Positions 23,380-28,234 of a DNA stretch of 64,000 nucleotides are shown here, piece by piece. The position numbers and the translations under genes were made by a program. The notes beneath the pieces are model-generated. The model saw only the letters and a list, made by a program, of their open reading frames with translations. It made no database searches and had not been told where the DNA came from. The stretch lies in assembly GCF_049060185.1 (NCBI RefSeq), contig NZ_JBMEQO010000002.1; one strand, given 5' to 3'. Positions within the stretch are counted from its first letter, which is position 1. Every line of letters starts with the position of its first letter. The DNA comes from Nannocystis pusilla (GTDB lineage Bacteria; Myxococcota_A; Polyangia; Nannocystales; Nannocystaceae).

Positions 23380-23655
23380 GACAGGTCGCATGGCGGCGAA
23401 GCCGTGGGCGCGCACGTAGTTGATGTGCATGCCCTTGCAGCCATGGTCGAACGAACATGTCTTGCAGCGCAGGCTCTTGACGTGGAAGCCGTCGTCGATA
23501 AAGCGGCGGGCGTAGCGGAAGATCTCGAGGCCGCCGTCGGGGCCGAGCTGGGCGGCGTCGAACACGGAGGGGCGCTCGCGCGGCGGGCGGCCGAGGACGC
23601 AGGCGGGCACGGCCTCGACGGGGACGGGGTGGCGGAAGGCGGCGAAGAAGGCCAC
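23380..23655 (-). CDS. small Cys-containing hypothetical protein (~90 aa)
   Basis: MAFFAAFRHPVPVEAVPACVLGRPPRERPSVFDAAQLGPDGGLEIFRYARRFIDDGFHVKSLRCKTCSFDHGCKGMHINYVRAHGFAAM is protein-like. It lies between the rSAM gene and the TPR gene on the same strand. Its end overlaps the TPR start, so a frameshift is likely. Confidence 0.35.
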
Positions 23656-23796
23656 GAGGTCGAGGTCGAGCTCGGCGGACTCGGTCAGGCGCTCGCGCGC
23701 GGGCTGGCGCAGGACCAGGCGCGGGGGCGCGATCGAGGCCGAGCAGCCACGGCTCGGCGGCGCGCGAGAGCAGGAGGACGACGTCGAGGTCGAGGT

Positions 23797-25626: not shown

Positions 25627-28037
25627 TAACGTCGCAGGCCGTGCGCCCCGGCCGCGTCCTCGTCGTCCATCCGCCCGTGTCGGTGGCGCGGGACTTCATC
25701 GATTACCCGTACTTCGTCGACCTCGGGGCGGTGCAGCTGGCAGCGGTGCTCGAGGGGCGAGGATCGAGTGCGACCTGGTCGACGCGTTCGCGCTGCCGGC
25801 GGAGGCGACGGCGCGAGCGAGGTGCGTCACGCGGCGTCGGGGCTGCAGTGGCGCAGCGACGGGCGGGCGCACCTGGGGGCGACGGTCGCGGCGACTCTGG
25901 CGGCTTGCCCGTCGTCGGCGGCGGCGATCGTGGTGGCGGTCACGCCGTTCCACCGGCCGCCGGCGCGCGACGACCTCCTCGGCGACCTCCTCGCCGGGCT
26001 GCGGGCGTGCCACGGGGCGGCGGTGCCGATCGTGCTGGCCGACTGCTACCAGTCGGGGCAGCACTACGTGGCGGCGCCGCAGCTGCTCGCCAGCTACCCG
26101 GAGGCCGACGCGTACGTGCAGTTCGAGGCCGAGGTGACGGTACCGGCGCTGCTGCAGGCGTATTTGGCGGGCGGGCCGGCGCCGCGCGGGCTCCACCGCG
26201 GGGAGCAACCTGTCCTCGAGGACCTGCCCGTTCCGGCATGGTCGAAGGTTAACCTCGAGGCGTACCACGAGTTCCGCGCGGCGGTGGTCCGCGGGCTCGG
26301 CCGCGGCGGGTGGGCGTTCCCGATCGACGGCCGCACGCTGCCGGCGGTGACGAGCCGCGGCTGCCCGTTCCAGTGCGCGCACTGCAGCTCGAACCCGGAC
26401 GTGGCGGCGGGCCGGCCGAAGACGCAGCGGCGGCACTCGCGGACGTCTCTGTCGGGCCTGTTGACGGCGCTGGCGCGCGAGCACGGGGCCGAGCGAGTGT
26501 TCGTGCTCGACGAGCTGATCAACGTCCACCCGGCGCACTTCGATCATGTCCTGGGGGACATCCAGGCGCTGGGCCTGCGCTTCGAGCTGCCCAACGGGCT
26601 GCGCGCCGACTACCTCGAGCCGCGCCACCTGCAGGCGATGCGCGGGCGGATCACGACGCTCAGCGTCAGCGCCGAGAGCGGGGTGCAGCGGGTGGTCGAC
26701 GAGGTGGTCGGCAAGCGGCTCGACCTGGCGGCGATCGTGCGCGCGGCGGAGTCGGCGGCGACGGCCGGCGTGTCGCTGATGATCCACTACATCATCGGCC
26801 AGCCGGGCGAGTCGGCGGCGGAGGTGAACCAGACGCTGAGCTTCGCGCTGGATCTGTGGGACAGGTTCAAGGCGTGGCCGGCGGTGCAGTTCGCGACGCC
26901 GCTGCCGGGCACGCGCCTGGCCCGATCGCTGCCGCTGGCGCCGCCGCCGGAGGACGGCGACTGGGGGCCGCGGTTCCAGCGGGCGCCGACCGGGGCGACG
27001 GTGCCGGCCGAGCTGCTGGAGAAGTTCCGCTGGACGTTCGAGCAGCGGGTGCGCGCGTCGCAGGGGCCGCGCAAGCTGGTGATGAACGCGACCTACGCGT
27101 GCAACAACCACTGCAGCTTCTGCGCGGTGGGCACGCGCACGCAGCTCCACGGCGACGGCGAGCGCCTGCGCGAGCAGCTGGTCCACTACCGCAAGCAAGG
27201 AGTGGAGCTGCTCGACATCGACGGCGGCGAGCCGACGCTGCACCCCGACTTGCTGGGGTTGATTCGCCACGCGCGCGCGCTCGGCTACCGGGCGATCAAC
27301 GTGACGACGAACGGCCGGCTGTGCGCGTACGAGGCGTTCGCGGCGCGCCTGGTCAACTCGGGGCTGTCGTCGCTGCTGTTCAGCGTGCACGGGGCCGACG
27401 CCCGCACGCACGCGCAGAACGTCGGGGTCGCGGAGGCCTTCGAGCAGACGCTGGCGGGGTGCGCAACGCGGTCCGCCTGGCCCCGCGCGGGGTCGAGCTC
27501 GGCCTCAACGTGACGATCACGAAGCACAACGAGGGGCAGCTGGCGGACATCACCGCGCTGGCGTGGTCGCTGGGGCTGCGGTGGGTGAACTATCAATTCC
27601 TGACGCCGTTCGGGCGGGCGACCGCGATGCTCGCGCCCGACACGGCCCGCGCGGCGGCGGCCCTGAGCGCGGTGATCGATGCCTGGCAGGCGCGGATGAA
27701 GCTGCAGATCATCAACCTGCCGTTCTGCTTCATGCCGGGGCACGAGGCGCTGATGCAGGGCGACCTCGGCAAGCTCGAGCGCCACATGGCGTTCGTCAAC
27801 AACGAGACGGTCAACCTGGCGCAGTACCTGGCCGAGCGCCGGGTCCGCAAGCCGGTGTGCGCGTCGTGCCCGCACGCGTGCTTCTGCGGCGGGTTCTACG
27901 AGCTCGACGAGGTGCCCGAGCCGCCGTGGCTGATCGCGCCGGAGGACCTGGTGCGCCCGCTGTCCGACCCGCGGCGCCACGAGTCGGTGCCGGCCGAGCT
28001 GCGCGAGCGCCTGCGCAAGCGCGCGGGGTCGCCGTGA
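25627..28037 (+). CDS. B12-binding-domain radical SAM enzyme fused to (or immediately followed by) a second radical SAM + SPASM-domain enzyme; frameshifts ~25750, ~25790, ~27470
   Basis: N-terminus VLVVHPPVSVARDFIDYPYFVDLGAVQLAAVLE(A)RGIECDLVDAF is a B12-binding-like Rossmann start. First rSAM motif TSRGCPFQCAHCSS. A possible internal start MRASQGPRKLVMNATYACNNHCSFC precedes the second CX3CX2C. SPASM-like CASCPHACFCGG is near the C-terminus. No in-frame stop separates the two halves. Confidence 0.65.
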
Positions 28038-28234
28038 GCGAGGCGCTGAGGTGCCCGCGCTGCGGCTGTCCCGAAGTGCAGGTGACCGCCGGCCGCGCAA
28101 GCGCGTGCGCGCCGATGCCGATGCCCGAGGCGCTGCGCTGCCCGCAGTGCGAGAACAGCGGGACGCGCCTGCCGCTGCACGGGCGGCCGATCGTGCGCTG
28201 GGAGCACGAGGGGCCGGGCGCGGCGGAGGGCTGA
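28034..28234 (+). CDS. small zinc-ribbon protein (66 aa) with two CxxC pairs, translationally coupled (GTGA) to the rSAM/SPASM gene
   Basis: The GTG overlaps the upstream stop. The product is MSEALRCPRCGCPEVQVTAGRASACAPMPMPEALRCPQCENSGTRLPLHGRPIVRWEHEGPGAAEG*. Confidence 0.5.
   Translation: MSEALRCPRCGCPEVQVTAGRASACAPMPMPEALRCPQCENSGTRLPLHGRPIVRWEHEGPGAAEG

Follow-up and report, generated by a model that had tools for sequence, protein, structure and literature searches.

Two divergent radical-SAM genes of Nannocystis pusilla and their possible link to an expanded His-Xaa-Ser system in Polyangia

A 64,000-nucleotide stretch of Nannocystis pusilla DNA (NCBI RefSeq assembly GCF_049060185.1, contig NZ_JBMEQO010000002.1), here called the window, carries two divergently transcribed genes for radical S-adenosylmethionine (rSAM) enzymes. 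We call these genes A and B. They are separated by a spacer of ~58 bp, and B is followed by the gene of a 66-aa protein with two CxxC pairs. An initial annotation, made from the sequence alone, had correctly recognized the divergent pair and had proposed a peptide maturation system in which two small Cys-rich proteins are neighbours and substrates of the enzymes. Here, we revise the gene models and weigh what the neighbourhoods of A and B in related genomes suggest about their function. The structural re-annotation is solid: there are two genes rather than four, B is an ancestral fusion, and the breaks within both genes are assembly errors. As to function, the pair may belong to an expanded version of the His-Xaa-Ser (HXS) system, whose components lie close to B in part of the related loci. 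The window is ~72% G+C, and its nearest genomes are those of Nannocystis. Repaired B shares 92% identity with the N. punicea protein, and the rSAM half of repaired A shares 98% with N. pusilla proteins.

Gene A encodes one rSAM protein. Its architecture was established by alignment with 12 full-length orthologues and by a larger, 44-sequence alignment. It consists of an rSAM core (CNDRCVFC), an auxiliary Cx5Cx2Cx5C cluster (CRAPERCKHCYLQPLC), a YGGDPAS motif, a linker, an alpha/beta domain and a C-terminal Cys motif. The core and auxiliary motifs lie on the minus-strand open reading frame (ORF) 23797..25620, exactly where the initial annotation had placed them. The auxiliary cluster is invariant in the orthologue alignments, and C671, C716, C719 and C725 are invariant or nearly so. 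The C-terminal motif reads VPAC...CKTCSFDHGCKG here and follows the invariant pattern VPxC...KSLRCxxCx5CxG.H..Y.RA.G. The linker is low-complexity and variable, and the alpha/beta domain that comes after it is conserved. Part of the linker is a tandem repeat whose length differs between strains. Several copies of the palindromic decamer GGACATGTCC, coding for GHVPHD repeats, fall within it. With one mismatch allowed, this decamer occurs 17 times in the window against 1.6 expected (e.g. at 22123, 22628, 24225, 24318, 24366, 28717, 36389, 40546 and 41852).

What had been read as a separate small Cys protein is the C-terminal domain of A, cut off by the frameshifts at ~24080 and ~23724. The minus-strand ORFs of the two parts share a frame, and the ~330 bp between them (about 23730-24060) code in another. 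This out-of-frame stretch translates sensibly (LWLVAPDL...ELELELAD...RVVVAD...LLLSRAAEPWLL). Moreover, at every related locus with enough flank, the C-terminal part directly continues the N-terminal part on the same strand.

Gene B likewise encodes one protein. It begins with a B12-binding-like Rossmann domain, followed by a first rSAM core (CPFQCAHC), a second rSAM core (CNNHCSFC) and a four-Cys C-terminus (PFC...CASCPHACFCGG). The motifs TSRGCPFQCAHCSS, MNATYACNNHCSFC and CASCPHACFCGG are found on the plus strand at the sites given for them initially. Pfam Radical_SAM matches B twice (94 bits). The assertion that no stop interrupts 25627..28037 did not hold, as no single frame is open and B is broken by 1-bp deletions at ~25761, ~25802 and 27456. 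Third-position GC tracks the switches: on the plus strand, the coding frame is 0 (25623-~25760), briefly 2, then 1 (~25802-27456) and again 0 (27456-28037).

The initial annotation had left open whether B is a tri-domain enzyme or two genes merged by an indel, and relatives favour the former. Among the best 120 homologues, B is a single ORF of 730-834 aa, and in more than 100 of the homologues listed it measures ~760-830 aa. At E<1e-30 there are 244 B clusters (representatives at 50% identity), many of them full-length and 27-55% identical. The occurrence of B as a single ORF in relatives across Myxococcota/Polyangia indicates that the fusion is ancestral, and that the indels seen here break it rather than create it. 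Across 27 diverse homologues, both CxxxCxxC motifs and the four C-terminal Cys are invariant or nearly so, and both cores therefore look catalytically competent. This includes C251, C255 and C258 of the first core, whose CPFQCAHC directly follows the Rossmann-like domain. The B12-binding label needs more caution. Against Pfam B12-binding (PF02310), B scores 16.7 bits, below the gathering score of 32.1; the relatives P0253 and P0254 score 27.8 and 31.6 bits. Distant relatives of ~1000-1090 aa carry either a third rSAM core (P0253, P0254, P0288, P0301, P0305) or an N-terminal class-I methyltransferase domain (P0265, P0280), so the fusion of catalytic modules recurs in this family. The C-terminal domains of A and B align weakly over their Cys motifs (hhalign probability 12%, E=0.0025), which is suggestive but no proof of homology.

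The breaks in both genes are part of a wider pattern. Compared with two related Nannocystis genomes, the window shows pervasive 1- or 2-base deletions. Over ~21 kb, it has 32 such gaps, whereas the 93-97% identical N. pusilla strain CP185339 (locus L005) has 6. The gaps in the window lie mostly at G/C runs, in genes and spacers alike, at ~1.5 per kb. Relative to CP185339, the window lacks 1 or 2 bp at 23378, 23724, 24080, 25570, 25761, 25802 and 27456, and these positions recur as gaps against N. punicea. In that second comparison, the gaps are 2 bp (23724) and 1 bp (24079) in A, and 1 bp (25760), 28 bp (25804) and 1 bp (27456) in B. Within A, the breaks are at ~25570 (-2 bp, just past the true ATG), ~24080 (-1 bp), ~23724 (-2 bp) and 23378 (-1 bp, with loss of the stop codon). 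The indels of each gene add up to frame restoration, and third-position GC stays at 0.94-1.0 after each shift, i.e. the codon bias is undecayed. Both reference genomes hold intact single ORFs (665 and 730 aa for A, 799 and 808 aa for B), and intact Nannocystis genomes overall give 665-747 aa and 799-808 aa. Judged from these comparisons, the frameshifts are single-base deletion errors of the assembly, and both genes are intact in nature. The error has also reached public annotation already, since the tail of a deposited N. pusilla protein (P0135, 587 aa) is out of frame in just the way seen in the window ORF. Many window ORFs beyond A and B are probably split in the same artificial way. For example, an alpha/beta-hydrolase-like gene apparently extends over two frames (ORF 17618..18553 for the N-terminal part, the end of ORF 17475..19145 for the C-terminal part), which is probably another assembly frameshift.

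Table 1. Features of the rSAM locus and its surroundings in the window.
Feature	Position	Strand	Remarks
Alpha/beta-hydrolase-like gene	17475-18553	-	
TPR-repeat protein, 685 aa	21314..23371	-	ORF directly downstream of A; faint TPR Pfam matches on orthologues
Gene A, one rSAM protein, ~745 aa after frame repair	23377..25582	-	ATG at 25582-25580
C-terminal domain of A (earlier 'small Cys protein')	23380..23655	-	Same frame and protein in 12/12 full-length orthologues
48/93-bp tandem repeat in linker of A	24138..24390	-	Encodes GHVPHD(I/T)S repeats; contains GGGACATGTCCC palindrome
Gene B, one protein, ~805 aa after repair	25623..28037	+	Likely start GTG 25641, as in N. punicea
66-aa protein, two CxxC knuckles (CPRCGC, CPQC)	28034..28234	+	Start overlaps stop of B (GTGA)
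436-aa ORF	29814-31124	+	
Region compared with relatives	9500-35000		Pervasive 1- or 2-base deletions versus two related Nannocystis genomes

The 66-aa protein stands up as a gene, as the initial annotation had held. Its start is coupled to the stop of B, and its in-frame third-position GC is 0.94-0.96, in the third frame relative to the B segments. The ORF is intact in all seven Nannocystis genomes examined, with a pairwise ratio of nonsynonymous to synonymous substitutions (dN/dS) of 0.2-0.9, about 0.4. It is thus only moderately constrained and evolves faster than enzymes A and B. C7/C10 and C36/C39 are invariant and provide the two CxxC knuckles by which a zinc ribbon or rubredoxin is recognized. 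An AlphaFold2 model (pLDDT 76) shows a small, compact all-beta fold, for which no significant fold match was found (best Foldseek PDB match E=3). Against Pfam Zn_ribbon_NrdR, the protein scores 16.7 bits, below the cut-off of 27.2. It has only eight homologues, all Nannocystis-like and at least 78% identical, and the gene is present in 5 of 80 related loci (the survey is described below), all of them from Nannocystis, whereas A and B are found class-wide. By this distribution it is a genus-specific add-on to B rather than a co-conserved substrate. In Nannocystis exedens (L008 12451-12534), a partial copy of the first 84 bp of the ORF lies between B and the full gene.

Assigning A and B to a known family is less straightforward. 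Against Pfam and NCBIfam, both match the generic Radical_SAM domain only, and every curated cut-off is missed. The equivalogs MoaA, PqqE, AhbD, NirJ, BlsE, Tes and HxsC were considered and rejected, as all scores are far under the cut-offs. The best NCBIfam match, for A and for the second core of B, is HxsC4. No RRE (RiPP recognition element, where RiPP stands for ribosomally synthesized and post-translationally modified peptide) or other leader-binding domain was detected in either protein. Among defence systems, the PADLOC models gave weak generic similarity to pVip and PDC-M51A. A search of the literature on Nannocystis and radical SAM found nothing relevant.

Structural relatives give more insight. 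In PDB profile searches, the first core of B matches AprD4 (99 bits), TokK (46 bits) and TsrM (31 bits), and the second matches BlsE, SkfB and PqqE, with which the core of A also aligns. AprD4 has the same layout of Rossmann-like domain and rSAM core as B, and it works without cobalamin. This order of domains is shared by the class B rSAM enzymes (TokK, TsrM). B differs from all of these in that its N-terminal half is fused to a second complete rSAM core, and from the class B enzymes in that its B12 module falls under the Pfam threshold and is putative. SPASM/twitch maturases (PqqE, SkfB, anSME, MftC) and BlsE have a Cys-rich extension after the barrel, as do A and B. The SPASM domain claimed initially was not recovered: Pfam SPASM (PF13186) matches neither A nor B at E<=0.01. 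Enzymes of the rSAM/SPASM type are recognized by such a match or by a seven-Cys motif for two auxiliary clusters, and A and B show neither. Instead, only four Cys are conserved per extension (Cx5Cx2Cx5C in A; C...CxxCx3-5C in A and B). This would suffice for one cluster, and it appears closer to a twitch domain than to SPASM.

The strongest clues to function come from the genes around A and B in other genomes. Scanning one genome per GTDB species yielded 80 loci, all from Myxococcota and mostly from Polyangia or Nannocystales, and neighbouring families were counted by clustering the predicted ORFs. Full-length B is present in 77 loci, and A adjoins it in 59. That is, the A-B pair is conserved across the Myxococcota class Polyangia. 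Several other families recur beside the pair: an rSAM of ~320 aa (24 loci), an rSAM of ~627 aa fused to a methyltransferase (17 loci), a ~599-aa protein identified as HxsB (14 loci; NCBIfam 557 bits, cut-off 370), a ~421-aa alpha-ketoglutarate-dependent (aKG) HExxH peptide beta-hydroxylase (12 loci; 97 bits, cut-off 40) and further rSAMs of 370, 412 and 656 aa (8-11 loci each), the last with two cores. A ~190-aa family is HxsD (57 bits, cut-off 50). Altogether, HxsA, HxsB or HxsD lies within 10 kb of B in 28 of the 80 loci, and in 20 of the 46 with a length of 20 kb or more. By our estimate, chance alone would place a single-copy system that close to any one gene in about 0.2% of 10-Mb genomes.

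These neighbours are often interleaved with the pair. In L028, the order is rSAM656, A, B, rSAM320, a ~205-aa protein with a twin-arginine-like signal, rSAM370, rSAM412, HxsA, HxsB, HxsD, a gap and the rSAM-methyltransferase. In L072, it is rSAM-methyltransferase, HxsD, HxsB, HxsA, rSAM412, rSAM370, rSAM320, A, B. In L016 (Enhygromyxa), it is TPR, A, B, rSAM320, the HExxH hydroxylase, rSAM370, the ~205-aa protein, the rSAM-methyltransferase, HxsD and HxsB. L073 and L030 also carry contiguous clusters, and HxsB comes directly after B in L034, L041, L047 and L066.

The relatives also encode a candidate substrate. Six-frame searches found ORFs with a conserved leader that end in (His-Gly-Ser)8-61-Trp in 14 loci (L020, L028, L030, L039, L042, L044, L053, L072, L073, L075, L077, L078, L080 and L085). 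The HxsA4-type His-Gly-Ser arrays are written (CACGGCAGC)n. Three of the four repeat ORFs that were tested pass the HxsA4 model (65-100 bits, cut-off 55). The leader of these precursors follows the pattern ..P.FK....G.L......IS..A.D.., and L042 has two tandem copies. E. coli HxsA, with its five repeats, has a much shorter array.

How do these clusters compare with the known system? HXS genes are recognized by TIGR03979, TIGR03978, TIGR03977 and TIGR03976 (HxsA, HxsB, HxsC and HxsD, respectively), and the NCBIfam models HxsA4 (NF038313) and HxsC4 (NF038332) represent a rare HXS variant. The E. coli system, characterized in 2026, is antiphage: mature HxsA blocks phage DNA entry from the periplasm (PMC13128918). 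HxsB and HxsC, together with HxsD, mature the E. coli HxsA by N-terminal processing and a change of +8 Da in the last HxS repeat (PMC13128918). HXS is reported to occur to 99.7% in Pseudomonadota and nearly always as four genes in the order D-B-C-A (PMC13128918). What the Polyangia clusters share with that system are rSAM enzymes of HxsC-like lineage, as A and B are by their HxsC4 match, and these are interleaved with HxsB, HxsD and HxsA4-type proteins. Unlike the four-gene system, the Polyangia clusters can have as many as about seven rSAM cores, and they include an aKG-HExxH hydroxylase and an rSAM fused to a methyltransferase. Their HxsA has 8-61 His-Gly-Ser repeats, whereas canonical HxsA has five HxS repeats and a peptidoglycan-binding domain. 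The locus in the window departs further from HXS loci, with no Hxs gene at all and with A and B far below the family cut-offs.

In Nannocystis, only the TPR gene, A, B and the 66-aa gene are together at the locus. The TPR gene was found by tblastn in 12 of the 80 loci and is a conserved neighbour only within Nannocystaceae, where the order TPR-A-B occurs in Nannocystis, Enhygromyxa and Plesiocystis. From the stop of A to the ATG of the TPR gene there are ~3 bp (23371-23380) in this strain and in N. pusilla CP185339, and a ~340-bp spacer in N. punicea (L001 7378-7718). Plesiocystis pacifica has two A-B copies (L002/L025 2194-5862, L026). One of them lies beside an extra 587-aa rSAM and a 1189-aa protein with ferredoxin-like 4Fe-4S motifs and a carbamoyltransferase part, whose C-terminus carries the CxxCx5C...Y...G motif common to A and other cluster rSAMs. 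On the other side of the Nannocystis locus, beyond the 66-aa gene, the 436-aa ORF begins with what resembles a signal peptide and contains extended stretches of GFGKDVDQ- and LEQDLEQ-type repeats. Its product has the appearance of a low-complexity, secreted protein, and its repeat number differs from that of a related strain (3- and 12-bp indels).

On this basis, we give roughly even odds (a probability of about 0.5) to the reading in which A and B serve as accessory maturases in an expanded Polyangia-type HxsA4 system. They look like divergent paralogues recruited to the expanded cluster. In such a system, HxsB, HxsD and several HxsC-like rSAMs would modify a leader-bearing protein that ends in 8-61 His-Gly-Ser repeats. 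By SAM cleavage, each of the rSAM cores would generate a 5'-deoxyadenosyl radical and take hydrogen from repeat residues, and the B12-like first module of B might add methyl groups or support a non-methylating rearrangement. The Nannocystis pair and the TPR protein would have become separated from the remaining cluster, so the gene of the substrate would lie elsewhere in the genome. The 66-aa protein would then be a genus-specific accessory, such as a metal-binding adaptor or an electron carrier, and not a substrate. Seen in this way, the initial proposal of peptide or protein maturation remains plausible as a link, with the candidate substrate in relatives being an HxsA4-type repeat protein that is not in the window. 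Similarly, its statement that the locus matches no known family is right at the level of cut-offs, and the neighbourhood in relatives nevertheless points to HXS.

Several results weigh against this reading. A scores 83.9 and 106.4 bits against HxsC and HxsC4, and B scores 69.0 and 108.9 bits, far below the cut-offs of 267.9 bits (TIGR03977) and 500 bits (NF038332), so neither is a member by the curated test. In the 64-kb window, tblastn and regular-expression searches did not find HxsA, HxsB, HxsD, the HExxH hydroxylase or the other cluster rSAMs. The Nannocystis isolate genomes examined have no Hxs component within 10 kb, and in 22 of the 46 long loci the 10 kb around B are free of Hxs markers. 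The solved structures that come closest are of enzymes with small-molecule or lipid substrates: BlsE decarboxylates a nucleoside, AprD4 dehydrates an aminoglycoside and GDGT-MAS synthesizes a lipid. Finally, the N-terminal rSAM domain of A is 63-80% identical class-wide, which is unusually high for an accessory RiPP enzyme.

The main rival explanation takes up these observations. It holds that A and B work by themselves, independently of Hxs, as a pathway of two enzymes for a small molecule, cofactor or lipid, and that the proximity to Hxs genes reflects a clustering of rSAM paralogues rather than a common substrate. The solved relatives, the solitary A-B pair in Nannocystis and in the 22 long loci, the conservation of A and the lack of a precursor peptide in the window all fit this explanation. 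We nonetheless regard it as less likely than the maturase reading. Single-copy Hxs genes near B are far more frequent (28/80) than the chance estimate allows, genes in L028, L072, L073 and L016 are contiguous and interleaved with the pair, and B abuts HxsB in four loci. The best family-level similarity of both enzymes is also to HxsC4 and HxsC.

A second explanation, that of the initial annotation, is a RiPP or peptide-derived cofactor system with the 66-aa and/or the ~90-aa protein as substrate of the rSAM enzymes. The translational coupling of the 66-aa gene to B, its intactness in 7/7 Nannocystis genomes and its invariant Cys speak for it. RiPP clusters are recognized by a precursor that lies beside its maturases and is co-conserved with them, and co-conservation with the rSAM genes was also the check set by the initial annotation itself. 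Here, the ~90-aa 'protein' is the C-terminus of A, and a gene confined to one genus and to 5/80 loci is no co-conserved neighbour of class-wide enzymes. In addition, a compact beta structure is not a leader-plus-core peptide, and at a dN/dS of about 0.4 the protein changes faster than its supposed enzymes. The small-protein substrates are thus largely refuted, and we find this model improbable. Least of all do we credit genuine frameshifts that recently made pseudogenes of A and B in this strain: the deposition of the same truncated 587-aa product (P0135) for an N. pusilla genome would fit, but deletions that are window-wide, spread over genes and spacers and one-sided (32 versus 6) argue against this as the main explanation, as do the undecayed codon-position GC and the restored frames.

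The maturase reading can be extended, more tentatively and with somewhat less than even odds, to an undescribed, Polyangia-specific 'mega-Hxs' pathway. Here, up to ~7 rSAM cores (one of them with a B12-like module), the aKG-HExxH hydroxylase and the methyltransferase would act together on a poly(His-Gly-Ser) protein with 8-61 repeats, and heavy cross-linking or methylation would be the outcome. Both the chemistry of this pathway and its role, be it in defence, metal binding or predation, would be unlike those of the four-gene E. coli HXS, and Nannocystis would keep A, B and the TPR protein together with the 66-aa metal-binding partner.

The results have two implications. Indel-rich assemblies yield false small 'Cys-rich proteins' and truncated rSAM genes, some of which are already deposited (e.g. 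P0135). As for the biology, if A and B belong to HXS, myxobacteria hold a much larger version of this system, with many extra radical enzymes and far longer repeat substrates. If true, expanded HXS would be a tractable route to new radical peptide chemistry, possibly with a different biological role.

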